A stretch of 64,000 nucleotides of DNA from NCBI GenBank assembly GCA_965207885.1, contig OZ242311.1:3680001-3744000 (forward strand). The letters are read 5' to 3'. This document shows, one piece after another, positions 22,242-57,046 of this stretch. The notes beneath the pieces are model-generated. The model did no database searches. It had not been told where the DNA came from and saw nothing but the letters and a program-made list of their open reading frames with translations. Numbering within the stretch: the first letter of the stretch is position 1; each line of letters starts with the position of its first letter. The translations under genes and the position numbers were made by a program. The DNA is from Candidatus Latescibacterota bacterium (GTDB lineage: Bacteria; Latescibacterota; UBA2968).

Positions 22242-22242
22242 G

Positions 22243-22286
22243 ACGAATCTGCGAATCTGCGAATCTGCGAATCTACGAATCTGCGA
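22243..22286 (+). repeat. Octamer tandem repeat (RCGAATCT) x5.5
   Basis: acgaatct gcgaatct gcgaatct gcgaatct acgaatct gcga, ending 2 nt from the ATG at 22241. Confidence 0.95.
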
Positions 22287-22321
22287 CGGAGTTTGTAACA
22301 ACTTTGGGAGGTTGGGAGGAG

Positions 22322-22345
22322 TTCGTCTATTCGTCTATTCGTCCA
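22322..22345 (+). repeat. Octamer tandem repeat (TTCGTCTA) x3, inverted relative to the 22243 array
   Basis: ttcgtcta ttcgtcta ttcgtcca; contains the stop codon of the DUF4340 gene; ACGAAT/ATTCGT is complementary to the other array. Confidence 0.85.
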
Positions 22346-23675
22346 GTTGCAACCACGACATCACCGAATACGGCAACACAACCACCTCACGGCGCGTTTT
22401 GGCAGTGCCATACCAAAAATTGTTGGCATGCCCGATGATCAGCTCTTGCACCAGTGTTTCGCTCCGCCACAGAGAAACAGTCAACACGGGATCATCCAAA
22501 CTATCTGCGGCAGACTTATCCACTCGATCGGGAAACTCGGCAACGACCAGATTGTGAACGCGATCGATCAAATCTTCAACGTCGGCGTCCCCTTTGACAA
22601 CGCGCCCATCCCCCATCACCATCTGCCACGAGCCATCGTCATTCTTTGCGCAATTCACCACGCTGTCTCGATATGCCAACCGCACGCGATCAACACCTGT
22701 GCGATCAAACTCAAAAACGCGCTTGTAACGCAACTGGTTCAATGGAATGTCCAGAGATTCTGCGATCAATTGTTCGACGATAAACACCTGTGGCCGACTC
22801 ATTACACGCCCATACCACAGTTTCTGCCGACTATCGGGAACGCGCTTGCCCAACAACAGTGTATTGGACATTTCATTGTCTTTTACATGCAACTCGACTT
22901 TGTAATCCGGATCGTCGAACCCGTAAATTGTGGGATCATCCACCGCCTCTTTGTGAAAAGATGCAACGCGCTCATCTTTCAACTGTCCCAACAATGTCAA
23001 AATCTCGCGCGCATCAGCTCGCTCTTTTATCGGCTGAACGAGATGCCACTCCAACCCATCCCGCACGACCTCATAGACGCCTCCAGGCGTTTGGAAATAC
23101 GCTCGCGAGACCAGATCGGGATCAAAGGAAAACGCCCGCGTATCGCGCAATGCCATCAGCGGACGATTAAACCGCGCGCGATATTGTTTTTTTGTCAACA
23201 CGACCTTGTTTCCGCCCGACCATGTAAAATAGCACCCCAGCTTGGAGGGAATATCATTGCCAAAAAACAACCACATGGGATCGCCCGATACCGGTTCAAA
23301 TCGCACCTCAACCACGGGCGGATCCAGCCCAAAATCGGCGAGAACAACCCCTGCGTAATCGCCTTCATCAACCACAACCCGACCGCGTTCAACAATCTGT
23401 GCGATCTCAATCATACCCTCAAACTCTATCCAATCTGCAGGCACTTCCAGCGGCGCAATTAGCGCCCACTCATTGCCGCGCTTCTCAGCGACAAAGTGCC
23501 CGTATTCATTGGTCAATGTCAACCGCGCAACGCGATGCCGCTGAACTTCAATAAACGCATTTTTCGCCTCACTCTCGCGTTGTTCCTCTGCCATGCGAGG
23601 ACGTTCATATAAAAAGACAAACCCCACCAGACCCAAAAGCAAAACCGCCAAAATCGCTGTCGCCTTAATACCCAC
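22335..23675 (-). CDS. DUF4340 domain-containing protein (repeated domains)
   Basis: N-terminal TM; repeated W.L..P....AD and YG.D.P motifs; directly downstream of the GldG-like gene. Confidence 0.75.
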   Translation of the reverse strand: MGIKATAILAVLLLGLVGFVFLYERPRMAEEQRESEAKNAFIEVQRHRVARLTLTNEYGHFVAEKRGNEWALIAPLEVPADWIEFEGMIEIAQIVERGRVVVDEGDYAGVVLADFGLDPPVVEVRFEPVSGDPMWLFFGNDIPSKLGCYFTWSGGNKVVLTKKQYRARFNRPLMALRDTRAFSFDPDLVSRAYFQTPGGVYEVVRDGLEWHLVQPIKERADAREILTLLGQLKDERVASFHKEAVDDPTIYGFDDPDYKVELHVKDNEMSNTLLLGKRVPDSRQKLWYGRVMSRPQVFIVEQLIAESLDIPLNQLRYKRVFEFDRTGVDRVRLAYRDSVVNCAKNDDGSWQMVMGDGRVVKGDADVEDLIDRVHNLVVAEFPDRVDKSAADSLDDPVLTVSLWRSETLVQELIIGHANNFWYGTAKTRREVVVLPYSVMSWLQLDE

Positions 23676-23711
23676 AATTTTTTCCTCAGTAGCCAGTTAC
23701 CAGTACACTTT

Positions 23712-25100
23712 TCAACGCCTGCGCCACCAGACCAGCACCCCCGCGACAATCGGGACGCCTGGCAACACCAGCCAATACACCCACCGAATCCAAAATTCAT
23801 CGCCCGGATTCAATGTCAGCGGGCGAAAAAGCGTGCTTTTGGGCCGAATCGTAATTTTATCGCGCGCCCTGAGCAACCAATTCGCTGCATTCATAAACAA
23901 ATCGCCATTGCCCGCCACTTCCACAAAGCGATTGCTCGCAAAATCCGAATCGCCAAATACCACAATCCGCGCCCGCGCGCCACGCCGATCATCCCCCGCT
24001 TTTGCAGCAATAGTGGTCGGGCCTTCCACGACCATCGCGAGCCACAACGGCCCCGGTCGGTCAGCCCCCGATGTGTATTGCACCGCTTCTTTGTCTTTAG
24101 CGGAAACAGCATCCAAATTGGTCTCACTCCAACTGTTCGGCGAAGACAGCACCAGCGAAGAAACATCAGCACCAGGCAAAGATCCCACGCGTTCCATCGA
24201 GCGCGTCAGCGGATAAAACGTCTGCAATCCCGAATGCTTATCCGTAATGGGATGTTTGCTATAATGTGTCGTCACGGGAACCGAAAAATCAGCCCCCGGC
24301 AGCACCTGGCTTTTATCGACCACAAAATCATTTCGCAGACCAATAGACCACTTTCGCAACAGCGGCACAAGCCCCGTATCGATGAGAGGATCCAACAAAA
24401 AGAACGCCGCCCCACCCTGATTGAGATACGTCGCTACAATATCGATCTCTGCTGGCAAAAACGGACGTTTTGGCCCCGCGACAATCAGCGCGTCACAATC
24501 TTTTGGCACGCGCTGTGATTGCGCCAGCACCAGGGATGGACGTACATCGTGGTTGCCTTCGATGAGCAACTGCTTGATCCTGGAAAATCCCTGCTCCGAT
24601 TGATCGTCGGGATGCGCCTCACCGTGCCCCCCCACAAAATAGACCACCTGCCGCTCTTCACTCATCAAACGCGCAATGCCGTTGGTCAGCACCTTTTCAG
24701 ACGTTTCCCGAATCCGCTCTTCCCGATTGCCGTATTCGATCACCGAAACACCATACCGCGTCACAGTATATCGCCTGGCCTCAATCGGTTCTCGATCGGG
24801 ATCGACAAACCGGTACGCAAAACGTCTCGAATGATAGGCGTACTGTTTGAGCAAATGCTCGTAATCGCGCTGCTCTGCCTCTCGGAAAAACGCCACAACA
24901 TTGACATCCTCAGACAAATTTTCCAAAAGAGAAATCGTTTGGGGCGATAGCGTATAAAGACCGCGAGCCGTCAGGTCAAAGCGCGCGTGATACCGCGTGG
25001 TCAAAAAATTAACCACCGCCAGAATTCCCACCGTGATCAACACTGCCACAAGGGCATTAGACCCGTATTTCAATAGTCGATGTGATAAAAATTTGGGCAT
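23712..25100 (-). CDS. GldG-family ABC transporter auxiliary component
   Basis: RFDLT....YTLSPQT, VDPDREP, VYFVGGHGE, LIVAGPKRP, RIVVFGDSDFASN, NGDLFMNAANWL, C-terminal TM + WWRRR. Confidence 0.85.
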   Translation of the reverse strand: MPKFLSHRLLKYGSNALVAVLITVGILAVVNFLTTRYHARFDLTARGLYTLSPQTISLLENLSEDVNVVAFFREAEQRDYEHLLKQYAYHSRRFAYRFVDPDREPIEARRYTVTRYGVSVIEYGNREERIRETSEKVLTNGIARLMSEERQVVYFVGGHGEAHPDDQSEQGFSRIKQLLIEGNHDVRPSLVLAQSQRVPKDCDALIVAGPKRPFLPAEIDIVATYLNQGGAAFFLLDPLIDTGLVPLLRKWSIGLRNDFVVDKSQVLPGADFSVPVTTHYSKHPITDKHSGLQTFYPLTRSMERVGSLPGADVSSLVLSSPNSWSETNLDAVSAKDKEAVQYTSGADRPGPLWLAMVVEGPTTIAAKAGDDRRGARARIVVFGDSDFASNRFVEVAGNGDLFMNAANWLLRARDKITIRPKSTLFRPLTLNPGDEFWIRWVYWLVLPGVPIVAGVLVWWRRR

Positions 25101-25110
25101 AAATCTATCT

Positions 25111-26232
25111 CTATTTCTCACCCGAGTAATGGCGCACGGCATCCCAATCGAGTTCTATACCGAGACCCGGCGCAGTGGGAATAGTGAGCAATCCGTCTTC
25201 ATCGAGTGAAAACGGCGTAGTGACAATATCTTCGATATAAGGCGATGGGGTAATATATTCGACCCAGCGCGCAATGGGATGTGCGGCAGACAGATGGAGA
25301 TCTGCGAGGAGGCCAATAGCGGTGTTCCAGCCGTGTGTGACGACCAGAACATTGTGGTCATACGCATACCATATCAGGCGTCGCACTTCAGAAATACCCC
25401 CCACTTTCGTGACATCGGGCTGAATGATATCATACGCGCCACGTTCAATCCACGGCATGAAACTCTGGCGGCGAGTAAAAACTTCTCCACCGGCAATGCG
25501 GACAGGTGAAAATTCTCGCAATTTGATGTGGCCTTCAATATCGTCGGGCGGGAGGGCTTCTTCAAACCAGGTGATATCGTAATCGCCGAGCATGCGAGCG
25601 GTTTCAATCGCCCATTTGTAATTGTGAGGCCAAAAGGCATCGCTGCCGCCCGCATCGACCATGAGTTCCACATCGGGGCCACAGGTGTCTCGGGCGATTT
25701 TGACGAGGCGTTCATCCATATGGCGGTCAACGCGCCCAAAAGCACCCCAGCCGAGTTTGAGCGCCCTGAAACCGCGGTCGAGCGCGTCTTGCAAAGTATC
25801 GGAAAATGTTTCGGGATCTTCAAAGAGAATCGAGCCGTAGGGTTTTATTTTTTTGCGATAATATCCTCCGAGCAAACGCCCAACGGGCTGCCCAGCCACT
25901 TTGCCCAAAATATCCCATAGCGCGATATCAACACCGCTAATCGCATGTGTAACAGCACCTCCCCGTCCCTGCCAGAAGGTCATCTGGTGAAGTTTTTCAG
26001 ATACGCGCTCGGGTTCCAGCGCGTTCTCCCCAATGATATTGGGGCGCAACAACCCCATCGCCCCATCGACCAGGGCTTTGCTGGTAAAAACACTTCCAAT
26101 GCCGCTCACACCTTCATCCGTCTGAACCTCGACCAGCGTGTGCATATTTTCATCCGGTCCTGGCTCGACTGTCCAGCCCGTCATAGGCGTTTCTCCAAAA
26201 AGCGGAATCGTGCGAACATCGGTGATATTCAT
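25111..26232 (-). CDS. Mandelate racemase/muconate-lactonizing (enolase superfamily) enzyme, possible acid-sugar dehydratase
   Basis: SGVDIALWDILGK, metal ligands MVDAG / FEE / GGE, QPDVTK, HGW; ATGA overlap with ackA stop. Confidence 0.85.
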   Translation of the reverse strand: MNITDVRTIPLFGETPMTGWTVEPGPDENMHTLVEVQTDEGVSGIGSVFTSKALVDGAMGLLRPNIIGENALEPERVSEKLHQMTFWQGRGGAVTHAISGVDIALWDILGKVAGQPVGRLLGGYYRKKIKPYGSILFEDPETFSDTLQDALDRGFRALKLGWGAFGRVDRHMDERLVKIARDTCGPDVELMVDAGGSDAFWPHNYKWAIETARMLGDYDITWFEEALPPDDIEGHIKLREFSPVRIAGGEVFTRRQSFMPWIERGAYDIIQPDVTKVGGISEVRRLIWYAYDHNVLVVTHGWNTAIGLLADLHLSAAHPIARWVEYITPSPYIEDIVTTPFSLDEDGLLTIPTAPGLGIELDWDAVRHYSGEK

Positions 26233-27419
26233 CCGTACTCCTTCAAGTATTCGGCTACTGCGCGTGCGACAATACATTCTTCGTCAGTCTGGACAATCAA
26301 AACCGCAACCTCGCTATTAGATGTCGAGATCAGCCCGTCTGCGGGAGGATTGGCATTTGCGACCTCGTCGAGGTGAACGCCCAGGTATTCGAGACCCGTG
26401 CAGACGCGCCAGCGCACATTTGCCCCGCGTTCTCCAATGCCCCCGGCAAAAGCAATCGCATCCAGACCGCCCAGTGCGGCAGAGCAAGCGCCGATTTCTC
26501 TTTTGATCCCATAACAAAATGCCTCCAGAGCAAGGCGTGCGCGCGCTTGCCCCTTTTGAGCGGCTTCTTCGAGATCGCGCACATCGCCGCTAATACCCGA
26601 AATGCCGAGCAAACCACTTTCCTCTGACAGAATGCGGCTCATCTCGCTTGTCGATAAATTTTCTCGGTCCATTATATAGGGAATAATGAAGGGATCAATA
26701 GTTCCAATACGCGTGCTATTAATGATGCCTGTTTGGGGCGAGAAGCCCATTGAGGTATCTATAGATTGACCGTTGCGAACCGCGCACAAAGAGGCACTCC
26801 CGCCGAGATGGCAGGATACCATGCGGAGATCCTCGCGGTTGAGTATTTGCGCCGTGCGTTGCGAAACGTAGCGATGGGACGCGCCGTGGAAGCCGTATTT
26901 GCGAACCCCGTATTTTTCATACCAGTCGTAGGGGACGCTGTAGATATAGGCATAATCGGGTATGTTGACGTGGAAGGCAGCTTCAAAAAGTCCAATCAGG
27001 GGCAGGTTGGGAGCACATTGCTCGAAAATGCGAATCGCCTGGATATAGGGCGGGTTATGGGCAGGCGCGAGGCTATTGTAGTCCGCCATGCGCTGCAAAA
27101 CATCTTCAGTGAGAAGATAAGTACCCGCTTTCCCGCGCATGTGAACGGTTTTGAATCCAACGGCATCAAGGTCAGACAAATCGGAGAGTACACCGGTGCG
27201 CGCATCTGTCAGACGCGCAATAACATCGCGGACAGCGGATGGATAATCCAGCAAGTGTTGTTCGGTTTCAACAGCGTATTCGCCAATCTGATGGGCAACG
27301 GGTGAAGACGGATCGCCGATGCGTTCGAGACGACCTTCGGCGAGCACCGCTTCATCGGTCATGTCAAACAGGCGATATTTGAATGAAGTAGAGCCTGCGT
27401 TTGCAATGAGGATTTTCAT
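26229..27419 (-). CDS. ackA: Acetate/propionate-family kinase (BMC-associated variant)
   Basis: MKILIANAGSTSFKY, LAPAHNP, KYGFHGASH, CHLGGSAS, DTSMGFSP, SGLLGISG, FAGGIGE, TDEE. Confidence 0.9.
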   Translation of the reverse strand: MKILIANAGSTSFKYRLFDMTDEAVLAEGRLERIGDPSSPVAHQIGEYAVETEQHLLDYPSAVRDVIARLTDARTGVLSDLSDLDAVGFKTVHMRGKAGTYLLTEDVLQRMADYNSLAPAHNPPYIQAIRIFEQCAPNLPLIGLFEAAFHVNIPDYAYIYSVPYDWYEKYGVRKYGFHGASHRYVSQRTAQILNREDLRMVSCHLGGSASLCAVRNGQSIDTSMGFSPQTGIINSTRIGTIDPFIIPYIMDRENLSTSEMSRILSEESGLLGISGISGDVRDLEEAAQKGQARARLALEAFCYGIKREIGACSAALGGLDAIAFAGGIGERGANVRWRVCTGLEYLGVHLDEVANANPPADGLISTSNSEVAVLIVQTDEECIVARAVAEYLKEYG

Positions 27420-28639
27420 GGTGTGACTGTTTCAAGCCTCTGCAGGGGTTTATCGGCAATGGGCAAATGAACGAGCGATGAAGTCACAGCCAAGAGAATC
27501 GCGGCAATCCAAATCATATCGTAAGACCCCGTTGCATCATACACGCGCCCGGCCAGCCACACGCCCAAAAAACTGCCGATCTGATGACTGAAAAAAACAA
27601 TGCCATACAGCGTGGAAAGATAGCGCGAACCAAATATCTGCGCGACAGTGCCACTGGTTAGCGGAACGGTTGCAAGCCATAAGAACCCGATTGCGCTGCC
27701 AAACACAAGCGCAGACGTATTTGTAACGGGTATGAACAGGAATCCGCTAATGACAATGGCGCGACCAAAATAAAGCAAACTCAAGAGATATTTTTTTCGA
27801 TATCGGTCGCCGAGTTGCCCCGAAAGATAAGATCCAAAAATGTTAAAAAGGCCTATCAGGGATAACGCCGTTGCACCGACCATCTTTGAAAGACCGTGAT
27901 CAGTCAGAAAAGAGGGCAGATGCGTGGCGATAAATGCCACGTGAAAACCGCACACAAAAAATCCCGCATTGAGCAACCAGTATCCCGAATGACCTCGCGC
28001 TTGAAGCAGTGCTTGAAGCAGACTGCCATCATGGGATTCAACGGTATTTGGAGACACCTCGCGCCCGCGATGTGGAATCCCAATAGCGAGCAAGGCACTC
28101 GCGCCCGCGATCAGGGCAATAAAAGCGAATGAAGATTGCCAGCCCAAATCAGAAAGAAGCCATTGAACACCCGGCACAATTGCAAACGTCCCGAAAGAAC
28201 CCGCAGCAGTAATAAGCCCAAAAAACGAGGCGCGTTTTTCAGGTGCAACAACCTGAGCGACCGCACCGAGGACCACCACATAGGAAATGCTGCTGAGTGC
28301 GATGCCCATAAGTACGCCGAGCACGGTGTACAGACCAAGAGGCGTACCGACAGAAGACAAAAGAAAAAAACAGACTGCATAGAGCAACGCGCCGACAGCA
28401 ACAACCCATCGCGGCCCAAAATGATCTGCTAAAATGCCCACTACGGGCAAACCAAAAATGAGATTTTGCCAGGCAATGGCCAGGCTAAAGACTTCGCGTC
28501 CAATGCCGAGATCCTGGCTGATCGGTGATAAAAAAAGGCCAAAGGATTGGCGAATGCCCATGCTGACAAACACAATCAGGGCACTACAAAATATGACAAT
28601 AGCCGCTTTGCGATTGGGCACTTTCCGATCCCACCTCAT
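27416..28639 (-). CDS. MFS transporter
   Basis: ~12 TM helices, GILADHFGPR and GQLGDRYRKK MFS motifs; ATGA overlaps on both sides. Confidence 0.9.
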   Translation of the reverse strand: MRWDRKVPNRKAAIVIFCSALIVFVSMGIRQSFGLFLSPISQDLGIGREVFSLAIAWQNLIFGLPVVGILADHFGPRWVVAVGALLYAVCFFLLSSVGTPLGLYTVLGVLMGIALSSISYVVVLGAVAQVVAPEKRASFFGLITAAGSFGTFAIVPGVQWLLSDLGWQSSFAFIALIAGASALLAIGIPHRGREVSPNTVESHDGSLLQALLQARGHSGYWLLNAGFFVCGFHVAFIATHLPSFLTDHGLSKMVGATALSLIGLFNIFGSYLSGQLGDRYRKKYLLSLLYFGRAIVISGFLFIPVTNTSALVFGSAIGFLWLATVPLTSGTVAQIFGSRYLSTLYGIVFFSHQIGSFLGVWLAGRVYDATGSYDMIWIAAILLAVTSSLVHLPIADKPLQRLETVTP

Positions 28640-29928
28640 CCTTGAACTACTGTCCCATATTCATTGGGAATTGGTCCGTCGTATTCCCAGGTTTCCCAGG
28701 GCGTATCTCGGTGCGATTCCCGAACAATGGTTCGAATTTCTGAAACAATATCTGGATATTCAGTTGCGAGATCATTTTGTTCGCCGATATCCGCTGCCAA
28801 ATCGTAGAGTTCAACAATACCTTCGGGATTTGTATGACCCTCGGGTAAATACGCCTTCCAATCGCCCATGCGAACAGCACTAACCCCGCGCCGCTCCCAG
28901 TAGAGAAATTCGTGAGCTTGTTGGGTATCGCGGTCCAGGAGCGCAGGCAACATAGAAATGCCATCAACCGGTTCCGGGATGGACGTATCAGCCAATTCGC
29001 AGAACGTGGGCAACATATCCTGAAAACCCGAATAATGTGCGCTCACAGTACCGGGTTGAATCGTTCCCGGCCACCGGGCGACAAAGGGCACGCGGATACC
29101 ACCTTCATAGAGGCTCCCCTTTTTTGCGCGAAGTGGTCCAGCAGCGTTGAAATGTCCAAGCGTATTGCCACTGCCGTGGGGACCGTTGTCGCTCGTGAAG
29201 ATAACAAGCGTATTTTCGGCAATTCCGAGCGCGTCAAGCATATCCAAAAGCGTGCCAATATCGCGGTCCATGCGCGTAATCATAGCAGCCTGCGTTTTCT
29301 GATTTTCTGTCCAGGGCTTGTCTTTGTAAATATCGAGAGATGGAATTTCGAATCTGGTGTGTGGAATCGTATAGGCCAAATAAAGGAAAAAGGGATTGGA
29401 TTGCTGCTCACGCACAAATTGCAAAGCCTCAGCTGTGAGCAGATCGTGTGAATACGATTTGCCGTAGAGCATAATCTTCTGATCGTTGCGCCAGAGGTGC
29501 TGAGGATAATACGTGTGGGCTTCGCGCTGGCAATTATACCCAAAAAAGTGATCAAACCCCTGATTGTTGGGATCGCCTTCCGATCCCGGATACCCCAATC
29601 CCCATTTGCCAATACAAGCAGTGGCATAACCGCCCTTTTTGAGCAATTTGGCAACCGTCTGTGTCTCCCCGGGAATGGGCACATTGCCCTCAATGGACAA
29701 AGCGCGATTGTCCCGCACATAACAATGCCCCGTATGCAGACCCGTCATAAGCACACACCGCGAAGGCGCGCACACCGAAGACCCGGCATAGTGATCCGTA
29801 AACCGAATACCCTCTGCTGCGATGCGGTCAATATTGGGCGTATAAATAAACTCCTGTCCAAAACAACCCAGATCGCCATAGCCGAGATCGTCCGAGAGGA
29901 TGTATATAATATTGGGCATTGCTTTCAT
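28636..29928 (-). CDS. Arylsulfatase (Cys-type, formylglycine-dependent S1), no signal peptide
   Basis: PNIIYILSDDLGYGD, CAPSRCVLMTG (CxPxR), GYATACIGKWGL, FTSDNG, KGSLYEGGIRVP, ELYDL..DIGE. Confidence 0.95.
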   Translation of the reverse strand: MKAMPNIIYILSDDLGYGDLGCFGQEFIYTPNIDRIAAEGIRFTDHYAGSSVCAPSRCVLMTGLHTGHCYVRDNRALSIEGNVPIPGETQTVAKLLKKGGYATACIGKWGLGYPGSEGDPNNQGFDHFFGYNCQREAHTYYPQHLWRNDQKIMLYGKSYSHDLLTAEALQFVREQQSNPFFLYLAYTIPHTRFEIPSLDIYKDKPWTENQKTQAAMITRMDRDIGTLLDMLDALGIAENTLVIFTSDNGPHGSGNTLGHFNAAGPLRAKKGSLYEGGIRVPFVARWPGTIQPGTVSAHYSGFQDMLPTFCELADTSIPEPVDGISMLPALLDRDTQQAHEFLYWERRGVSAVRMGDWKAYLPEGHTNPEGIVELYDLAADIGEQNDLATEYPDIVSEIRTIVRESHRDTPWETWEYDGPIPNEYGTVVQG

Positions 29929-30749
29929 TATTTTAACTCTTCCATAACTCTGCGAGTAATTTCCGCGATGAGATCGTCCTGGGAAGTTTGGGCAGGAGGT
30001 GTACCGCCAGCGCTCAACGTGCGAATCGTGGGAATGCCGCCATTGGTCTCAGGTTGCGTTGTGGGTGCATCGGGGATATCACACGCTGGATCGGGGCCGC
30101 GAAGGCCCATGCGGTTTCGAATCGCGACCAGTTTTTCCACCTGTTCCGCATTGAGTTCGTTATACCCGCCGAGTTGTTGTGCCACAAAAAGTATTTTCGC
30201 AAAATGCTCCAGCGTTTCCATCTTGTAATAGGAATTCATCACATCGGCACCGATCGTAGTCGCACCGTGATTTTCGAGCAAATAGGCGTCGTAATCTTTG
30301 ACGTATTGCCTGATCGGTTCAGATATCTCTGGTCCTCCCGGCGTACCGTATTCCACAATAGGTATAGCGCCGAGAGTGATAATCACCTCGGGCAAAACAC
30401 ACATAGTAAGGGGAACGCCAGCCACCGCAAAACCCGTAGCCGTTGGCGGATGCGCGTGTACCACAGCGCGCACATCGGGACGCTCGCGATAGAGAAAAAT
30501 GTGCATCCCAATTTCCGACGAAGGCCGCTTTTGCCCACTCACAAGCGTGCCATCCATGTCAGTAATACAGAGATCTTCGATCTTGAGAAATCCCTTGGAC
30601 ATCCCCGTTGGCGTAGTGAGAATGCGGTCTTCTTCAATCCGGCAGGAAATATTGCCATCGTTAGAAGCGACAAAGCCGCGTTCGTACACGCGACGTCCAG
30701 CTTCAACAATATCGAGTTTGGCTTGATGGAGATTCATTTTATATCTCAC
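29928..30749 (-). CDS. Class II aldolase/adducin-family (FucA/RhaD-like) with C-terminal encapsulation peptide
   Basis: DGNIS, PSSE, HAHP, LLENHG Zn ligands; Pro/Thr linker then QDDLIAEITRRVMEELK; start GTG 30749 or ATG 30737. Confidence 0.9.
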   Translation of the reverse strand: MRYKMNLHQAKLDIVEAGRRVYERGFVASNDGNISCRIEEDRILTTPTGMSKGFLKIEDLCITDMDGTLVSGQKRPSSEIGMHIFLYRERPDVRAVVHAHPPTATGFAVAGVPLTMCVLPEVIITLGAIPIVEYGTPGGPEISEPIRQYVKDYDAYLLENHGATTIGADVMNSYYKMETLEHFAKILFVAQQLGGYNELNAEQVEKLVAIRNRMGLRGPDPACDIPDAPTTQPETNGGIPTIRTLSAGGTPPAQTSQDDLIAEITRRVMEELK

Positions 30750-31018
30750 CCCTTCATATCAATATCATCTACAACGCCGACGATAACGGAACGCACCGCA
30801 GGCAATTCCACATTGAGGACGAGACCTGCCGCGACTCCTTGACGGATCACGAGGACAATTTCGCCGCGACCAACGCCTGTGGCGTCAACTGCCAGAGCCG
30901 ATGCGCCGTCATCTTTGCCATCGGGCGTAATGGGTTGCACGACCATGAGTTTGGCGCTGTTGTAATCGCTGTGTTTAATAGTCGATGTGACGCTACCGAG
31001 AACGCGGGCCAGGAACAT
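30746..31018 (-). CDS. BMC vertex (pentamer) protein, EutN/CcmL family
   Basis: MFLARVLGSVTSTIKH..KLMVVQP..AVDATGVGRGEIVL..IVGVVD. Confidence 0.93.
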   Translation of the reverse strand: MFLARVLGSVTSTIKHSDYNSAKLMVVQPITPDGKDDGASALAVDATGVGRGEIVLVIRQGVAAGLVLNVELPAVRSVIVGVVDDIDMKG

Positions 31019-31044
31019 ATAGAATTTGGGATTCGGGGTTTAGT

Positions 31045-31065
31045 CTCCCCTTCTTCTGAGGGGAG
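31045..31065. repeat. Intergenic GC-rich palindrome (REP-like hairpin)
   Basis: CTCCCCT-TCTTCTG-AGGGGAG in the 64-nt gap between two BMC-P genes; no U-tract. Confidence 0.5.
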
Positions 31066-31082
31066 CCGGAGGGTAGGCTACC

Positions 31083-31346
31083 TCATGCATCGACCTGATC
31101 GACAATGCCAACAACTGCCGCATCAACCGGGCCGTATTTATCGGGCAGGGCGTTGGGCGCTTCTCGTGAACCGACCCAGTAGATGGTCTCGCCATCGCTG
31201 GCATTGACCACATCAATCGCGACAAAAGCATCCCCTGCTTTATTGTGCTCGTGATCAATCGGTTCAACGACAAGCAGTCTAAAACCTTTGAGCGAGGCAT
31301 CTTTGCGCGTCGCCCAAATTTTTCCAATGACGCGGCCGAGGAACAT
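31083..31346 (-). CDS. BMC vertex (pentamer) protein, EutN/CcmL family
   Basis: MFLGRVIGKIWATRKD..LLVVEP..VAIDVV..GE..GSREA..PVDAAVVGIVD. Confidence 0.93.
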   Translation of the reverse strand: MFLGRVIGKIWATRKDASLKGFRLLVVEPIDHEHNKAGDAFVAIDVVNASDGETIYWVGSREAPNALPDKYGPVDAAVVGIVDQVDA

Positions 31347-31369
31347 TTTTACCTCGCGAGATACGGGAC

Positions 31370-32806
31370 TTATACAATTCTAAAATAGTCGATGAGGGCA
31401 CAGCGGCGCTGGCGGGTAAATGTGCGGGCAGACGTGCAGCCTTCGCCGGTGGGTGTGGCAATAGAGAAAGACGTATAGCCTTCGCCACCTGCGCCCAATC
31501 CCGCAGATGACGCGCCGTTTTTCACAAAAATCGTACACTTACACTGGCGAGCCATAACCGTCATATTCTCGACATTTTTCGAATGCATGACCGCCGTGTG
31601 GCGATACCCCTGTTCGGCCCGAATAGCCCAGTCAATTGCCCTGTGTACATCGGGTGTGCGAACAATGGGGACAAACGGCATCATCTGCTCGTGTTGAACA
31701 AAATCGTGCTCATTTTCAACCTCGCCAATCAAAAGCTCTGTATCGGGCGAAATATTGAGACCAATTTGGGCAGCAAGCACATGCGCGCTGCGACCAACGA
31801 GGTCCCGATTGAGCATCCAATCGCCTTTTTCGTCGCGGGGAAACGCGATTTTGGTCAGTGCATCAATTTGCGACCGGTCGAGTTCCACACAATTATTTGC
31901 CTTCAAGTGGCGCATTAGTTCATCGGCCACGGATTGAACTGCAAAAACTTCCTTTTCGCCAATACACAAAATATTATTGTCAAAACCGCCGCCTTCAATA
32001 ATGCCGAGGGCGGCCTTTTCGATATCGGCGGTCTCATCTACGACTACAGGAGGATTGCCAGGTCCTGCTGCGATCACGCGCTTGGGTGCTTGCATGGCCG
32101 CTTTGACAACACCGCCCCCACCGGTGACGAGAACGAGATCAATGACGGGATGCACAAAAAGGCTCTGCGCCGTTTCTATGGATGGTTCGCGCACAGCGAC
32201 GAGCAGATTTGGTGGACCGCCCGCGCCGACAATGGCGCGATTGAGCATCTGAAGACCCAGAGCCGAAACATCTTTCGCGCTCGGATGGGGCGCAAAAACC
32301 GCGCTATTGCCCGCAGCGACAAAGCTAATTGCATTGTTGACCATCGTGGGCACCGGGTGCGTGGATGGCGTGACCGCTGCTATCACGCCAAAGGGCGCCA
32401 TTTCAACAACCGTCAAACCATTGTCGCCCGTCCACGCCGTGGGTTGCAAATCTTCAACGCCAGGTGTGTGTTGTACAACAACCTCGAGTTTGCGAATTTT
32501 GTGCGGCACCTTACCCATGCCGGTTTCTTCAACGGTTTTTTGCGCGATACCCTTTGAATGCGCCATAGATTCGCGGCGGATCGCAGAAATAAGCTCGCGG
32601 CGTTGCTCCAGACTCATTGCTTCAAGGGCACGCTGGGCTTCTGAAGCTGCAGCAATAGCTTCTTCGAGATCATCAAAAAGGCCATCGTCGCCTTTGTTTT
32701 CATAGCGCGCGGGCGGTGCAATAACAGCAGGGGCTTCGCGCTCAGCCACAAGGCGACGCACGACCTGCTCAACCACCGATTGGATTTGAATTTCGTCTAA
32801 GTTCAT
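31370..32806 (-). CDS. CoA-acylating aldehyde dehydrogenase (PduP/EutE family) with N-terminal encapsulation peptide
   Basis: MNLDEIQIQSVVEQVVRRLVAE EP; EETGMG, APFGVI..VTPSTHP, AGPGNPP, FDNNILCIGEKE (catalytic Cys), SFSIATPTGEG, TFTRQRRC. Confidence 0.95.
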   Translation of the reverse strand: MNLDEIQIQSVVEQVVRRLVAEREAPAVIAPPARYENKGDDGLFDDLEEAIAAASEAQRALEAMSLEQRRELISAIRRESMAHSKGIAQKTVEETGMGKVPHKIRKLEVVVQHTPGVEDLQPTAWTGDNGLTVVEMAPFGVIAAVTPSTHPVPTMVNNAISFVAAGNSAVFAPHPSAKDVSALGLQMLNRAIVGAGGPPNLLVAVREPSIETAQSLFVHPVIDLVLVTGGGGVVKAAMQAPKRVIAAGPGNPPVVVDETADIEKAALGIIEGGGFDNNILCIGEKEVFAVQSVADELMRHLKANNCVELDRSQIDALTKIAFPRDEKGDWMLNRDLVGRSAHVLAAQIGLNISPDTELLIGEVENEHDFVQHEQMMPFVPIVRTPDVHRAIDWAIRAEQGYRHTAVMHSKNVENMTVMARQCKCTIFVKNGASSAGLGAGGEGYTSFSIATPTGEGCTSARTFTRQRRCALIDYFRIV

Positions 32807-32823
32807 ATCTCACTTCGCACGTC

Positions 32824-33114
32824 TCACTTCTGATAAACCGCTTCACCTTCGATTTCTGCCGTGTCGATAATAGCGACAATCACAGCATCGACAGGGCGAT
32901 CTTCAGTCACACTCGTCATGCGGGCGGAACTTCCACTACAACAGAGCACGACTTCGCCATCGCCTGCACCAACAGCATCTACGGCGACCAAAAAACTTTC
33001 TTTGAGTTCGAATGCGGGCAAATCAAGCGTTTGGACGATCTGGAGCTTAAAACCCGCCAGACCGCTGTCTTTTTGGGTGGCAACCACCGTTCCCACCACC
33101 TTGCCGAGGGTCAT
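32824..33114 (-). CDS. BMC vertex (pentamer) protein, EutN/CcmL family
   Basis: MTLGKVVGTVVATQKD..L.GFKLQIVQ..VAVDAVGAGDGEVVL..GSSAR..PVDAVIVAIID. Confidence 0.95.
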   Translation of the reverse strand: MTLGKVVGTVVATQKDSGLAGFKLQIVQTLDLPAFELKESFLVAVDAVGAGDGEVVLCCSGSSARMTSVTEDRPVDAVIVAIIDTAEIEGEAVYQK

Positions 33115-33117
33115 AGT

Positions 33118-33402
33118 TTAGCCGTCTGAAGAGCCGATAGGCAGAATATTTTCAAGGCTACCATGTGGTCGCGGAATGACGTGTACGGAAACGAGTTCTC
33201 CAATTTTGCCAGCGGCAGCAGCACCGGCTTCCGTTGCAGCTTTAACAGCTGCCACATCGCCGCGCACAATAGCAGTGACATATCCTGCGCCAATGCGTTC
33301 CCAATTGACAAATTGGACATTGGCGGCTTTGACCATCGCATCTGCAGCCTCAATCATAGCTACGAGACCTTTGGTTTCAATCATGCCGAGGGCTTCACCC
33401 AT
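33118..33402 (-). CDS. BMC shell hexamer protein (BMC-H, PduA/EutM-like)
   Basis: [46 protein letters not shown]. Confidence 0.97.
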
Positions 33403-33424
33403 GTTGTGTCCTCCTGAAAAATGA

Positions 33425-33697
33425 TCATTGTGTACTGAAAATAACCGTCTCTACCTGTGGATCGAGATTTGGGATAACGTGAGCGGCAACGAGATCGCCA
33501 ACGCGCTCGGCAGCTTCTATTCCCGCTTCGATAGCTACGTGAACCGCGCCCACATCGCCGCGTACGAGTGTGGTGGTATATCCCGCACCGATTTTTTCGT
33601 ACTTTTCAATCGTGACGAGAGCCGTCTTAACCATGGCATCGGCAGCTTCTGTTGTGCCAATAACGCCGAGTGTTTCAATCATACCAAGAGCATTCAT
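33425..33697 (-). CDS. BMC shell hexamer protein (BMC-H, divergent C-terminal motif)
   Basis: [40 protein letters not shown] (PRPH absent). Confidence 0.95.
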
Positions 33698-34401
33698 TTT
33701 ATCATAAACACCGTATCTCCACAGACGAGATCGGCTGCGTTGGCGTCGTCGGTATCCAAATGGAGTTCGGGCAAATAGCTTTCGTCAATTTTGAGGCGCA
33801 CATTATCATATATAACGCCTTTTTCGCCTCCCACGCGCACCCTGACAGATTCCCGCCCTTGAAAGCCATAATCTATTACATCAGATGGACGCAGGTGAAT
33901 GTGGCGCGCCGCGCGAATGGCTGCGTTGACCGTGACCGACCCCTTGGGACCGATAAAAGTAACAGGTGGCGCATCTCTCAGGTCTCCCGAATCCCTCACA
34001 GGCGGGTCAACACCGATATAGATGGCATCGGTTCGGGCGAGTTCGACCTGATTATAGTCGCGACTGGGACCGAGAATTCGCACGCGCTCAATCGCGCGCA
34101 ACCGGGGGCCAACAACAGATATGACTTCCTCGGCGGCAAAAGCACCCGGCTGATAGAGTTCTCGATAAGGCGTTAAGGTGTGACCCGCACCAAAAAGGAT
34201 CTCCAGAGTTTCGTCGTCAACATGTGCATGCCGGGCAGACACACCTGCAGAAATGGGAATTTCTGCGTTATCTCCACCGCGTATTTGGAGCACGACTTCT
34301 TGCGCAATGCGATCAATCGCATCGCTTTCCCCGCTGTTTTGCCCGAAAGAACAAAGCCCGCAGTCATCGCACACAGAGGCATTTTTTCGCATTGGAAACA
34401 T
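33694..34401 (-). CDS. pduL: PduL-type phosphotransacylase with N-terminal Cys motif and encapsulation peptide
   Basis: SARHAHV, L.QPG.FAA.E, VRILGP.R..NQVELARTDA, RDSGDL, ARHIH, LHLDTDDANA; start ATG 34401 or 34392. Confidence 0.93.
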   Translation of the reverse strand: MFPMRKNASVCDDCGLCSFGQNSGESDAIDRIAQEVVLQIRGGDNAEIPISAGVSARHAHVDDETLEILFGAGHTLTPYRELYQPGAFAAEEVISVVGPRLRAIERVRILGPSRDYNQVELARTDAIYIGVDPPVRDSGDLRDAPPVTFIGPKGSVTVNAAIRAARHIHLRPSDVIDYGFQGRESVRVRVGGEKGVIYDNVRLKIDESYLPELHLDTDDANAADLVCGDTVFMIK

Positions 34402-34440
34402 TGTCAAAGTTCTGTATCAGGTGCTGTTTACAAAGGGCGA

Positions 34441-34469
34441 AAAATAGCCCATGCCTGCTGTAAAGTCAA
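34441..34469 (-). promoter_or_regulatory. sigma70-type promoter of the BMC operon
   Basis: TTGACT-17 nt-TATTTT, ~40 nt upstream of pduL. Confidence 0.65.
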
Positions 34470-34559: not shown

Positions 34560-36179
34560 ATGAGAAATATACACTTGCTACTTAGATCGCTCATGTGCAT
34601 CCTGCTGTTTTTCTATATAGCCAGCCCGGCAATCAGCGAAGATGCCTCACCCGATATTCCACTGTATCATCCCGTGTATCCCTTATTGGATCGCCTGAAT
34701 GCACGAGACTGGGTCGCCGTACCCGATACGCGTCCCTTGACCCGGATACAAGTTGTGCGGATGCTGTCCGCCGTGTCCAGTCAATCTATGTCGGCAACCG
34801 AGCGCGGCCTCATCAACCGATATATCGCAGAATTGGAAAATCGCGCGGCCTTTGCACGCGAACCCCGATGGACCTGGCACGACTCTGCGGCGTCCGTCAC
34901 CCTCGAACCGCTGGCACGGCAACAGGTGATTGCGCGCAGGGGCGATGGATTTTTGAACGAGACCGCGTCGCAAACCTATATTGGTGGTTCTATGCGCGGG
35001 CGATTCCACACATTGGGATTTTATGCACGCCACTTTGAGGCCCGCGAGTGGAGCAACCAACCGCGCCTTCGCCGAGAAGATGTGCTGGCCCATCCCCTTG
35101 AAGACGTGCAACTCAAAGGCAAAAAAGTGGATTTCCGCGAAAGCGCGTTTCAACTGGCCTGGGCAAATACATGGATGCGTGTAGATGTGGGTAAAGGAAG
35201 CCTCAGTTGGGGGCCCGGACGCACGGGAAATTTATTGCTCTCCAACAATGCGCCATCTTATGGCTTGTTCCGGTTGCGGACATCACATGGGCGATTGCGC
35301 TATACCCATATCGCTTCATCACTGCGCGCACGCCCGGGATTAATCGACACGACGCGACGGTGGATCGACAATGGGCATGTGCGTATTTTTTTAAGGCAGA
35401 AGCGACTTGCCGCGCACCGACTGGAGATTGCGTTCTCAAAAGTGAGAATAGGATTGCACGAGGCAGTGGTATATGGCGACCGAGGATTTGAACTGCTCTA
35501 CGTTTTGCCAGTCGCCGTATTTGCTGGAACGCAAAACCACCTGGGAAATCGCGACAATCTCGTAATTGGAGCCGATATATCAGCTCACATCCTGACGGGA
35601 CTAACACTTTATGGCGCGTGTTTTTTCGACGATATGGTCAAATTCGATCCCAATGCGTTTTCCAATCAATTTGCCTTTCAATTGGGCGCATTCTGGGTCG
35701 ATCCCTTGGGCTTGCGAGATACTGACGTACGCGCCGAATATGTGCGTGTGGAGCCTTATGTGTACGCACACAATTTCCACATCAATACGTATGAACACTA
35801 CGACGCGCTGTTGGGCTATCCAACCGGACCAAATGCAGACCGATATTTTGCACGAGTGACACACCGCTTTTCGCCGAGCCTGAATGCGTCTTTAACTTTT
35901 GAAAGAGAGCGACAAGGTGAAAATCCAGTAAATCCAGATGGAACAATTGTCAATGTAGGCGGCAATGCACAACTGGGGCGTCGATTAGAGGACCCAACTA
36001 CGCGAAACTTTATGTCGGGCAATATAGAGACACTAAAAAAAATAGGTGGCCACGTGTTATTCGCACCCGTGAGAAATTGGACTTTACAAATGCAATATCA
36101 ACACCATCGCATCACAACACAGCAAAGCAGGGTAACAGGGCATGAGTGGACAGCGACAATGGCTGTGAACTTCTATTAA
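34560..36179 (+). CDS. Capsule assembly Wzi-family outer-membrane beta-barrel protein
   Basis: Signal peptide, IPLYHPVYPLLDRL, WGPGRTGNLLLSNNAP, AAHRLE, LGYPTGPNAD, C-terminal aromatic residue. Confidence 0.75.
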   Translation: MRNIHLLLRSLMCILLFFYIASPAISEDASPDIPLYHPVYPLLDRLNARDWVAVPDTRPLTRIQVVRMLSAVSSQSMSATERGLINRYIAELENRAAFAREPRWTWHDSAASVTLEPLARQQVIARRGDGFLNETASQTYIGGSMRGRFHTLGFYARHFEAREWSNQPRLRREDVLAHPLEDVQLKGKKVDFRESAFQLAWANTWMRVDVGKGSLSWGPGRTGNLLLSNNAPSYGLFRLRTSHGRLRYTHIASSLRARPGLIDTTRRWIDNGHVRIFLRQKRLAAHRLEIAFSKVRIGLHEAVVYGDRGFELLYVLPVAVFAGTQNHLGNRDNLVIGADISAHILTGLTLYGACFFDDMVKFDPNAFSNQFAFQLGAFWVDPLGLRDTDVRAEYVRVEPYVYAHNFHINTYEHYDALLGYPTGPNADRYFARVTHRFSPSLNASLTFERERQGENPVNPDGTIVNVGGNAQLGRRLEDPTTRNFMSGNIETLKKIGGHVLFAPVRNWTLQMQYQHHRITTQQSRVTGHEWTATMAVNFY

Positions 36180-36192
36180 GCGGGAAAGAGAA

Positions 36193-37365
36193 ATGAGTCA
36201 TCGCCAGTACCTGTGGGGCTTGCTCGCATTCGCATTATTATTGCGCGTAGGGTTTGGGTTGTCGCAATCCGATTTGACCAATTCATCTGATGAGGTACAT
36301 TGGGATCGTTTGGGGCAGGCTTATGTCGCGCTGGGCGTTTTGCACCCCGATACCGGAATGTACCGCCCCCCATTATACGGCTTATTTCTGGCGGGCATGT
36401 ATCGTACATTTGGTCACAAACCCGTCCTGGTGCGGATTGCCCAGGCCATCTTGGGCACAATCACCTGCTATTTCATCTATGTTCTGGGCTGTAGAATGGG
36501 CAGGGTATTGGTCGGTCTGATCGCTACTGGTTTGTTCGCTATTTATCCGTTATTTATATATTTTTCCGGCGTGTTGATGGCCGAAACCATTCTGATTTTT
36601 TTGACGACTATTAGCTTTTTGTGCTGTGTCCAATTCTGGAAAAAAAACACCTTTCCGATGGCGATGATATTTGGTGGAATTGTGGGACTATCCGCACTTT
36701 GCAAGCCCGTTTTATTGCCCTGGTTACCTCTTGTTCTCTTTTTTTGGTGGCAAAAATCTCGCCTGACACCTGCACAAAAAGCATCGCGCGTGCTAACCGT
36801 AGTCGGCGCACTCTGCCTGATTATTTTGCCCTGGACAGCGCGCAATCATATCGTCTCGGGCGAATTTGTGCCTATCTCGACTAATTTGGGGATCAACTTG
36901 CTGGTGGGAGCACACCCAGAAGGACGCGGCGTTTACGACAACCACATCGATTATCTGGCACTTTATCACACACTGGCCGACACATCTCAGGGTGCAGCCG
37001 CCGACCGCCGCGTCGCGGGCGTTGTGATAGAGTGGATAATCGCGCAACCACTGCACTATCTGAGTTTGAGCATTGACAAACTGCTCTATTTTTGGTGCCC
37101 CTGGGTGCCGGGAGAGCCGCCATTATACAACGCAATTGCCGTGCTTTCCTGTACCCCATTGCTAACCCTGGGACTTGCCGGCACATTTATCCAACGCCAG
37201 AGGTCCGAAGGTCTGGCACTTATTCTACTGATAATTTGCATGTCACTATTGCACATGGTATTCTTTGCTCACACGCGCTTTCGGCTACCTGTTGACGCGG
37301 TTTTGTGCGCGCCTGCGGCCTGGGTATGTGTGCAGTGGATTAACCGAATAGGGCGAAGGGCGTGA
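36193..37365 (+). CDS. GT-C fold glycosyltransferase, family 39 (ArnT/PMT-like)
   Basis: SDEVHW, YRPPLY, YPLFIY..LMAET, PWTARN, RFRLPV; multi-TM. Confidence 0.8.
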   Translation: MSHRQYLWGLLAFALLLRVGFGLSQSDLTNSSDEVHWDRLGQAYVALGVLHPDTGMYRPPLYGLFLAGMYRTFGHKPVLVRIAQAILGTITCYFIYVLGCRMGRVLVGLIATGLFAIYPLFIYFSGVLMAETILIFLTTISFLCCVQFWKKNTFPMAMIFGGIVGLSALCKPVLLPWLPLVLFFWWQKSRLTPAQKASRVLTVVGALCLIILPWTARNHIVSGEFVPISTNLGINLLVGAHPEGRGVYDNHIDYLALYHTLADTSQGAAADRRVAGVVIEWIIAQPLHYLSLSIDKLLYFWCPWVPGEPPLYNAIAVLSCTPLLTLGLAGTFIQRQRSEGLALILLIICMSLLHMVFFAHTRFRLPVDAVLCAPAAWVCVQWINRIGRRA

Positions 37366-57009: not shown

Positions 57010-57046
57010 CTTGCTACTCCTTCCCTGGTAAAACATCTATTTGTCT

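Follow-up and report, generated by a model that had tools for sequence, protein, structure and literature searches.

In Planctomyces limnophilus, the characterised example of the Planctomycetes/Verrucomicrobia (PVM) type of bacterial microcompartment (BMC), the organelle degrades fucose and rhamnose (PMC4207490; PMC8217296). According to the 2021 BMC catalogue supplement, the PVM type occurs only in Planctomycetes and Verrucomicrobia. For Latescibacteria, a BMC was noted in 2014 as an “SPU-like” locus (PMC4207490), a fucose/rhamnose BMC was inferred in 2015 from single-cell genomes (PMC4454575), and at least 30 of 34 mentions of Latescibacteria in the shell-protein tree file of the catalogue, like those in two passages of its type-description file, are typed FRAG2, MIC7, HO or “fragmented.” Here, we describe a microcompartment operon of Candidatus Latescibacterota bacterium (assembly GCA_965207885.1), situated in a stretch of 64,000 nucleotides of contig OZ242311.1 (positions 3,680,001 to 3,744,000), which is referred to as the window in the following. 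This operon represents a genus-specific variant of a known metabolosome: it combines the gene content of a PVM microcompartment with a gene order of its own and holds, directly behind its aldolase gene, a sulfatase gene found at this place in the host genus only.

Sulfatases near a fucose-type BMC are also described for the Planctomycetota strain 892, in which fucoidan polysaccharide utilization loci (PULs), encoding sulfatases and fucosidases, share a genomic region with a BMC that is induced on fucoidan (PMC11685898). There, however, the sulfatases reside in separate PULs, whereas here a single sulfatase without export signal is encoded between two core genes of the operon itself. A 2020 paper by Sizikov et al., cited in PMC12648040, is said to deal with sponge-associated Opitutales that use sugars by means of microcompartments and carry many toxin-antitoxin modules. 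Our host resembles these bacteria as a sponge symbiont with a fucose/rhamnose-type BMC and with abundant toxin-antitoxin genes, which in sister species lie even inside the operon, but it belongs to a different phylum; the sequencing runs holding the stretch are mostly labelled as sponge metagenome or metatranscriptome.

Full-text literature searches pairing sulfatase with microcompartment, or with Latescibacter, sponge or fucose terms, returned no BMC operon with an embedded sulfatase, and the text available of PMC8857213, PMC11685898 and PMC4454575 describes none. Likewise, neither “sulfatase” nor “00884” appears in the main text of the 2021 BMC catalogue and seven of its supplement files, while two larger archives outside this search may hold locus tables. 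An earlier reading of the window (the sequence-only reading), which knew of no characterised BMC locus with a coupled sulfatase, is in line with these results.

A PVM-Type Core in a Gene Order of Its Own

Twelve co-oriented genes on the minus strand occupy positions 25111–34407 of the window (Table 1). Their order, 5' to 3', is pduL, BMC-H, BMC-H, BMC-P, aldehyde dehydrogenase (AldDH), BMC-P, BMC-P, aldolase, sulfatase, major facilitator superfamily (MFS) transporter, ackA and an enolase-superfamily enzyme of the mandelate racemase/muconate lactonizing enzyme (MR/MLE) type. Naming of the listed open reading frames (ORFs) with Pfam and NCBIfam bore out every one of the twelve identities and positions proposed by the sequence-only reading. 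According to the ORF coordinates, six pairs of neighbouring genes overlap in their start and stop codons, by 4 nt at pduL/BMC-H, BMC-P3/aldolase, sulfatase/MFS, MFS/ackA and ackA/MR-MLE and by 1 nt at aldolase/sulfatase, and the non-overlapping junctions show gaps of 3–64 nt.

With regard to enzymes and shell, the locus holds the PVM set: a PF00596 class II aldolase with a C-terminal tag, an N-terminally tagged acylating AldDH, a PduL-type phosphotransacylase (PTAC) and an acetate kinase, together with two PF00936 and three PF03319 shell genes and no BMC-T gene; a third, extended BMC-H is encoded in a satellite locus. Both the PVM core recognised by the sequence-only reading (PduL, two BMC-H, three BMC-P, AldDH, aldolase and AckA) and its proposal of a variant metabolosome in a different lineage are thereby upheld, as the host belongs to the Latescibacterota and not to the two phyla listed for the PVM type. 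Its label “PVM-like” stands for the content, but the formal type of this name is a Firmicutes type related to GRM5, and the gene order is not that of the PVM loci. This formal type (Axen 2014; Sutter 2021) is ruled out by three BMC-P versus two BMC-H genes and by the non-Firmicutes host. Also rejected was MIC4. The catalogue defines this type by AldDH, PTAC, a PF00596 aldolase and a PF00871 kinase, accompanied in the operon by a homologue of PduS and a BMC-T of the PduT type; our locus has these four enzymes, but its ORFs include neither a BMC-T nor a PduS-like gene.

The tags mentioned above are amphipathic, encapsulation-peptide-like extensions at the C-terminus of the aldolase and at the N-termini of AldDH and PduL, as judged from sequence only; extensions of this kind are described in the catalogue supplement. 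In the aldolase, a Pro/Thr/Gly-rich linker follows the PF00596 domain and leads into the terminal amphipathic stretch. Upon inspection of their sequences, no such extension was seen in the sulfatase, AckA or the MR/MLE enzyme, and the C-terminal tail of the sulfatase is also present in a non-BMC homologue. A second ackA is located elsewhere in the genome.

For comparison with Planctomycetota and Verrucomicrobiota (PVC), we used an AldDH match at E ≤ 1e-90, which was present in 12 of 121 Planctomycetota and 25 of 121 Verrucomicrobiota genomes; all 12 of the former, 21 of the latter and one Poribacteria genome (G172) make up the 34 comparison regions. The complete PVM order pduL-H-H-ackA-(H)-P-AldDH-P-P-aldolase occurs in 21 of the 33 PVC regions, the other twelve being partial or otherwise arranged. 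In all 21 complete loci, ackA separates the BMC-H genes from the first BMC-P, whereas in the window it follows the aldolase and all shell genes. This order is an observation from the loci compared here rather than a published rule, and the window locus departs from it. Further differences to the PVM loci are the embedded sulfatase and MFS genes, the placement of the extended BMC-H together with a Reg_prop gene in the satellite and the lack of a lactate/malate-dehydrogenase-type gene in the locus. The AldDH is 41–51% identical to its counterparts in the PVC and Poribacteria BMC loci and 42–51% identical to those of the 36 PVC genomes with a match. Taken together, the core agrees with PVM loci in content, while its genes are arranged in an order of their own.

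This order is shared with other Latescibacterota. A search of 168 genomes of the phylum recovered PF00936 shell genes in 152. Beyond the genus, but within the same family, order and class, the genes are arranged as pduL-H-H-P-AldDH-P-P-aldolase-ackA-Reg_prop-BMC-H(extended), and the proteins are 56–93% identical to those of the window (L096–L111). Other Latescibacterota contributed 20 regions to the comparison: 17 represent this operon type and three other BMC types, two are cut short and two lack an ackA match; in 13 loci, the aldolase is directly followed by ackA. Unlike the window, none of the 20 regions holds a sulfatase, this MFS gene or an MR/MLE gene, and a Reg_prop beta-propeller gene and a C-terminally extended BMC-H gene close the operon behind ackA (e.g., L096:8767-10962). 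In the window genome, the latter pair forms the satellite G000:C1:236795-240022 (L014), about 3.5 Mb away and beside a DDE transposase gene. Moreover, the second BMC-H gene is separated from the first shell gene (or from pduL) by about 1.4–1.6 kb in L095, L096, L098, L103–L105, L107 and L108; in L096, this gap encodes a 465-aa protein with a weak match to GT87 glycosyltransferases (L096:2510-3907). The genus of the window lacks this gap, and so do the loci from genera g4, g5, g9 and g13.

The Sulfatase Stays With the Aldolase Throughout the Genus

Each of the other 20 species genomes of the genus carries an orthologue of the sulfatase (87–97% identical) on the same contig as the best BMC-H match, at a distance of 3.3–11 kb. 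The sulfatase gene stands behind the aldolase on the same strand in all 14 genus loci compared and also in G016, the operon of which is split exactly between sulfatase and MFS: here, the shell genes, the aldolase and the sulfatase are found at 1.0 Mb, and the MFS gene, ackA, a restriction-modification pair and the MR/MLE gene at 5.5 Mb. The sulfatase match of this genome (G016:C1:1012224-1013504) sits in a stop-to-stop frame of 981 aa, for which ORF calling gives a gene of 431 aa. Outside the genus, a sulfatase inside the operon was found in none of the 34 comparison loci, and a single one of these regions has a homologue, outside the operon and on the opposite strand. The synteny of sulfatase and BMC genes across related metagenome-assembled genomes, named as a check by the sequence-only reading, holds in all 21 species of the genus but does not extend beyond it; the insertion is new at the genus level.

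The gene is intact in all 13 loci that reach past it. Against three species, ratios of non-synonymous to synonymous substitution (dN/dS) amount to 0.056–0.088 for the sulfatase, compared to 0.051–0.082 for the aldolase and 0.033–0.074 for the AldDH, with dS values up to about 1.1. The sulfatase is under purifying selection and constrained like the core enzymes.

Candidate Promoters and Possible Co-transcription

The sequence-only reading placed one promoter in front of pduL. The sigma-70-like site exists (Table 1), but a single promoter is not borne out, since 20 sites score this way between positions 22000 and 35000 (11.7 +/- 3.2 in shuffles) and three sites internal to the operon reach 10/12 and hence score higher. 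Terminator-like sites were not above chance (12 found, 16.3 expected).

Contigs from RNA libraries, mostly sponge metatranscriptomes, cover the operon and bridge several of its junctions, namely pduL/BMC-H, aldolase/sulfatase (X15, X16 and X20), sulfatase/MFS (X15, X16, X17 and X20) and ackA/MR-MLE (X15); MFS/ackA is bridged in X17 by a single contig of 2.3 kb reaching from ackA into the sulfatase gene. The contigs of X17 and X20 are only about 90–95% identical to the window and represent relatives; they skip the MR/MLE gene, which matches those species that lack it. Cover of the bin 34643–35000 (1.34, 0, 0 and 0 in four runs) is not usable as evidence. As RNA-library contigs can contain DNA, they are no proof of a single transcript, and we regard them as consistent with co-transcription.

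Kind and Possible Origin of the Sulfatase

Among solved structures, the sulfatase is closest to 7ANA (373 bits, E 1e-110) and 7AN1 (321 bits, E 1e-94), followed among named kinds by the kappa-carrageenan 4S sulfatase (242 bits). Both entries were deposited, along with 7ANB and 7ALL, with the paper in which BT1636 and BT1622, both of the SulfAtlas subfamily S1_20, were first assigned activity on galactose-3-sulfate (3S-Gal) (bioRxiv 10.1101/2020.11.20.392076). Besides this similarity, the operon enzyme shares with the S1_20 members the Cys-type CxPxR formylglycine site (here CAPSR), and its decapeptide CQREAHTYYP matches nine of the ten positions of the S1_20 consensus, position 4 being Glu. 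It includes the Gln and His that select galacto-configured sugars in S1_20 enzymes (bioRxiv 10.1101/2020.11.20.392076). Of the BT1636 specificity residues, only this Gln/His pair could be placed on our protein, the numbering of E100, E334 and R353 being irreconcilable in the HMMER alignment. In contrast to these S1_20 enzymes, the operon sulfatase has no signal peptide, is encoded inside a microcompartment operon and has, behind the catalytic motif, a loop about 16 residues shorter, in which one of the BT1636 specificity residues may lie. Because the enzyme groups with S1_20 galactose-3-sulfate sulfatases, a sulfate of fucose or rhamnose, the substrate suggested by the sequence-only reading, is no longer the obvious one.

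The host genome (6.2 Mb) comprises 191 ORFs of sulfatase homologues (e.g., G000:C1:283273-339835 and 3475173-3497804) as well as 13 matches to the domain of the formylglycine-generating enzyme (FGE), which matures Cys-type sulfatases. An S1_20-type motif, with position 4 left free, occurs in only 2 of the 191 ORFs, and none matches at all ten positions; the other motif-bearing ORF is a paralogue about 46–48% identical to the operon sulfatase. With respect to export, the in-frame stop upstream lies fewer than 20 residues ahead of the domain in at least 115 of 188 sulfatase ORFs (at least 61%), and fewer than 30 residues ahead of it in 143 of 188. This assessment counts the room in front of the domain, as the threshold of a 10-residue hydropathy window, used along with inspection of N-termini by eye, missed a few evident signals of the twin-arginine translocation (Tat) pathway; only a handful of the ORFs carry a Tat-like signal. 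Since most of these ORFs leave no room for an export signal, the sulfatase arsenal of the genome appears to be mostly cytoplasmic, implying uptake of still-sulfated substrates.

The operon sulfatase, too, has no room for a signal peptide. All 30 homologues examined from outside the genus, by contrast, have a hydrophobic, often Tat-like N-terminal extension (by eye). In a quick, midpoint-rooted tree with SH-aLRT support, which leaves out family-level Latescibacterota homologues and involves no clade test, the genus sulfatases form a clade (99) next to five Planctomycetota sequences (96), both inside a set of 20 PVC rows (99), and the closest paralogues of the own genome fall elsewhere. This placement suggests that the sulfatase could have been captured from a Planctomycetota-like source. 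The genes next to the closest Planctomycetota homologues (3-keto-disaccharide hydrolase, ThuA, GFO/IDH/MocA and HZS-alpha-like) gave no clue to a substrate.

The MFS Transporter and the MR/MLE Enzyme

The sequence-only reading regarded the MFS protein as a sugar importer. Its best NCBIfam models are the L-lactate carrier SfMCT (108.9 bits) and then oxalate/formate antiporters (OFA), and the solved structures related to it are limited to SfMCT (E 3e-20) and the monocarboxylate transporter (MCT) MCT2. The SfMCT equivalog itself (NF049980) was rejected as a name, as its cut-off is 320 bits, and the ESM Atlas contained generic “MFS transporter” clusters only. At E ≤ 1e-10, the genome contains no paralogue of this protein. 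Orthologues of 61–69% identity are found in 43 genomes of other genera and, in six surroundings examined, lie away from the BMC locus and next to PrpD and isocitrate lyase (ICL)-like genes (two loci), GFO/IDH/MocA (three), PhyH (two) or a lactonase gene (one). Since the MFS gene moreover travels with ackA in the split operon of G016, it would fit a carboxylate carrier for the kinase product better than a sugar importer.

In its full form, the sequence-only scheme had the MFS protein import a sulfated fucose or rhamnose product, which the sulfatase desulfates and the aldolase cleaves, with the MR/MLE enzyme in the same pathway. Gene adjacency with overlapping codons and the RNA-library contigs across the junctions would agree with such a scheme; however, it is very unlikely in view of the MCT/OFA-like nature of the transporter, the organic-acid genes beside its orthologues, its decay in three species in spite of an intact sulfatase and, where the operon is split, its location beside ackA rather than beside the sulfatase.

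The MR/MLE enzyme, for which a start codon at M16 agrees with its relatives, is best matched by the galactonate dehydratase model (162 bits, cut-off 311), and L-rhamnonate dehydratase reaches 124.8 bits (cut-off 393). No equivalog cut-off for a named acid-sugar dehydratase (galactonate, rhamnonate, talarate, mannonate and others) is attained. In the PDB, its best neighbours are 3SJN and 5OLC, and the 3,6-anhydro-L-galactonate cycloisomerase 5XD7 is also among them. The protein is probably an acid-sugar dehydratase or cycloisomerase. The genome contains an unusually high number of 60 MR/MLE ORFs, 18 of which lie within 3 kb of a sulfatase ORF, and the operon copy is absent in 4 of 14 species examined, which weakens its role as a linked member of the pathway proposed earlier. 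Neighbourhoods of sulfatase, MR/MLE and lactonase/PhyH genes recur in the genome (e.g., L154 and L155).

On this basis, the operon could also harbour a different chemistry, in which sulfatase and MR/MLE enzyme belong to an oxidative, non-phosphorylative route for sulfated galactose or 6-deoxy-galactose and the AldDH of the shell detoxifies the product aldehyde (glyceraldehyde, or lactaldehyde derived from a 2-keto-3-deoxy acid). The galactonate dehydratase model, the structures 5OLC and 5XD7, the S1_20 affinity of the sulfatase and the recurring neighbourhoods just mentioned would point this way. Yet we consider this route unlikely, given an MR/MLE protein that stays below all equivalog cut-offs and is missing from those four species loci, an operon with neither a sugar dehydrogenase nor a lactonase, and a tagged aldolase of the ketose-1-phosphate (FucA/RhaD-fold) type instead of one for 2-keto-3-deoxy acids.

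A Proposed Pathway and Its Weighing

By homology with the PVM microcompartment, a deoxyhexulose-1-phosphate of the rhamnulose-1-phosphate or fuculose-1-phosphate type would enter the shell, inside which the tail-tagged class II aldolase would release dihydroxyacetone phosphate (DHAP) and lactaldehyde. The tagged AldDH would convert lactaldehyde into lactyl-CoA and the tagged PduL the latter into lactyl-phosphate, from which cytosolic AckA could form lactate and ATP. Upstream of the organelle, the cytosolic S1_20-like protein, as an exo-sulfatase, most likely removes a sulfate of the 3-O type from a galacto-configured sugar after its import, and the desulfated sugar would then pass via an isomerase and a kinase encoded elsewhere in the genome into the organelle; RhaA (602 bits) and five FGGY kinases are such parts. 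The MCT-like carboxylate transporter, encoded directly before AckA, most likely moves the acid end product, and the MR/MLE enzyme at the 3' end could be a facultative acid-sugar enzyme.

We assign about an even chance to this reading, i.e., an aldolase-signature metabolosome of PVM logic for which a genus-specific sulfatase prepares an imported sulfated sugar, while an MCT-like carrier handles the acid. All substrates as well as the metabolic coupling of sulfatase and organelle are what we infer, and desulfation feeding the organelle is plausible. More tentatively, the genus could have evolved a metabolosome subtype of a new kind, with desulfation as its first, committing step: a cytosolic 3-O-sulfatase placed between the aldolase and the ATP-yielding kinase would allow deoxyhexose or galactose units of sponge or algal origin to enter the cell with their sulfate, to lose it in the cytoplasm and to be catabolised in the organelle, the carboxylate carrier exporting the product.

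Several observations weigh against the proposed coupling. With 191 sulfatase ORFs in 6.2 Mb, adjacency alone is cheap, and the signal-less state of the sulfatase is no mark of special recruitment, since at least 115 of 188 sulfatase ORFs have the same short N-terminal stretch and this state is the norm of the genome. Characterised S1_20 enzymes act on the 3-sulfate of D-galactose or GalNAc, the product of which is no known BMC substrate, and the signal for a fucose isomerase in the genome is weak (38.9 bits). The operons of sister genera and of the 34 comparison loci are free of a sulfatase, the MR/MLE gene is absent in those 4 of 14 species, and the MFS gene, present in 19 other genomes of the genus, is full-length in only 16 of them, with a stop in G002, a split in G012 and an internal deletion in G017. 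To these points comes the possible DNA in the RNA libraries.

Furthermore, 6 of the 14 genus loci have 1–6 kb of inserted genes between aldolase and sulfatase, so that the tight translational coupling is not conserved, although the linkage is. These inserts include DNA methylase-HNH, transposase, AbiJ, PIN and DUF5615 toxin-type, toxin-antitoxin and restriction-modification genes and, in two loci, a GH113-like gene. More generally, operons of sister species are interrupted (L025:4295-9956, L020:8549-9999, L021:9404-9742, L026:2638-4245, L161:14846-16486 and L162:11395-13806) by genes for DNA methylase-HNH, DDE transposase, AbiJ, PIN/DUF5615, an AAA_21 ATPase and an AccI-type restriction enzyme with methylase; the AAA_21 genes, present in two species, are situated at another place of the operon, behind pduL. 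In two species, a protein of 513–521 aa with a weak GH113-like match is encoded directly upstream of the sulfatase and on the same strand (L021:7511-9052 and L027:8375-9940), which may be a partner glycosidase.

Such a landing site for mobile and defence genes is also what one would expect if the core were an ordinary fucose/rhamnose-type microcompartment in which sulfatase, MFS and MR/MLE genes came down by a genus-level rearrangement, useful by themselves and conveniently co-expressed, but without a metabolic link to the organelle. The genome has a large stock of sulfatase and MR/MLE ORFs, 18 of the 60 latter ones close to a sulfatase, and the same genus has relocated the Reg_prop and BMC-H pair and is without the GT87-like gene of some other genera. 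MFS and MR/MLE genes are dispensable in several species, and the loci of sister genera and PVC work without them. Nevertheless, the sulfatase keeps to the aldolase in 21 species, even where the operon is split, is undamaged, evolves under a constraint like that of the core enzymes, and shares overlapping start and stop codons with its neighbours in the species of the window. Moreover, as one of only two S1_20-like copies among 191, it is no random draw from the abundant kinds. We therefore hold a mere passenger role of the three genes, the main rival of the proposed coupling, to be possible, but doubtful.

Gene Table and Surroundings of the Operon

The features of the operon are compiled in Table 1.

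Table 1. Genes and candidate promoter of the microcompartment operon, with positions in the window.
Feature	Position	Strand	Basis
Sigma-70-like hexamer pair TTGACT-17-TATTTT, upstream of pduL	34441-34469	-	9/12 matches; weak candidate promoter
PduL-type phosphotransacylase	33694-34407	-	PF06130 202 bits, domain from residue 55
BMC-H shell protein 1	33425-33697	-	PF00936 84.4 bits
BMC-H shell protein 2	33118-33402	-	PF00936 104.9 bits; EutM model 141 bits (cut-off 133)
BMC-P vertex protein 1	32824-33114	-	PF03319 98.8 bits
CoA-acylating AldDH	31370-32806	-	NF011927 647.6 bits (cut-off 403)
BMC-P vertex protein 2	31083-31346	-	PF03319 94.4 bits
BMC-P vertex protein 3	30746-31018	-	PF03319 71.7 bits
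Class II aldolase (signature enzyme)	29928-30749	-	PF00596 162 bits, residues 13-187 of 273
Signal-less Cys-type sulfatase, S1_20-like	28636-29928	-	PF00884 204 bits; CAPSR active-site motif
MFS transporter, monocarboxylate (MCT)/oxalate-formate type	27416-28639	-	PF07690
Acetate/propionate-family kinase (AckA)	26229-27419	-	TIGR00016 380 bits (cut-off 293)
MR/MLE enolase-superfamily enzyme	25111-26232	-	PF13378 and PF02746

Upstream and divergent, positions 34560–40778 (+) hold a polysaccharide-assembly cluster with Wzi-like, PMT_2, Wzy_C, GT2 and DegT aminotransferase genes; a PMT_2 gene flanks the operon in a sister genus, too. Directly downstream, at 19297–25142 (-), follow genes for a GldG-like ABC_transp_aux protein, DUF4340, BatD and two BatA/VWA proteins, and in species without the MR/MLE gene the GldG-like gene lies within about 30–200 nt of ackA. 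The rest of the window contains no clear fucose or rhamnose genes. An FGGY carbohydrate kinase gene (57114–58661) adjoins a 3-hydroxyisobutyrate-dehydrogenase-like gene (56110–57036) 23 kb from the operon and among unrelated neighbours; no link between this kinase and the operon could be shown.

Implications for Sulfated Glycan Use

The locus extends PVM-type gene content to a phylum that is not listed for this type in the 2021 catalogue. A fucose/rhamnose-type microcompartment is taken to mark bacteria that consume sulfated algal and animal glycans, and desulfation and organelle catabolism have so far been seen as separate steps, with exported sulfatases in PULs on the one hand and a cytosolic organelle on the other. 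A signal-less sulfatase between core organelle genes points to another strategy, i.e., to import first and to desulfate inside. In this context, the sulfatase together with the aldolase organelle represents a small, testable unit for what sponge symbionts eat.

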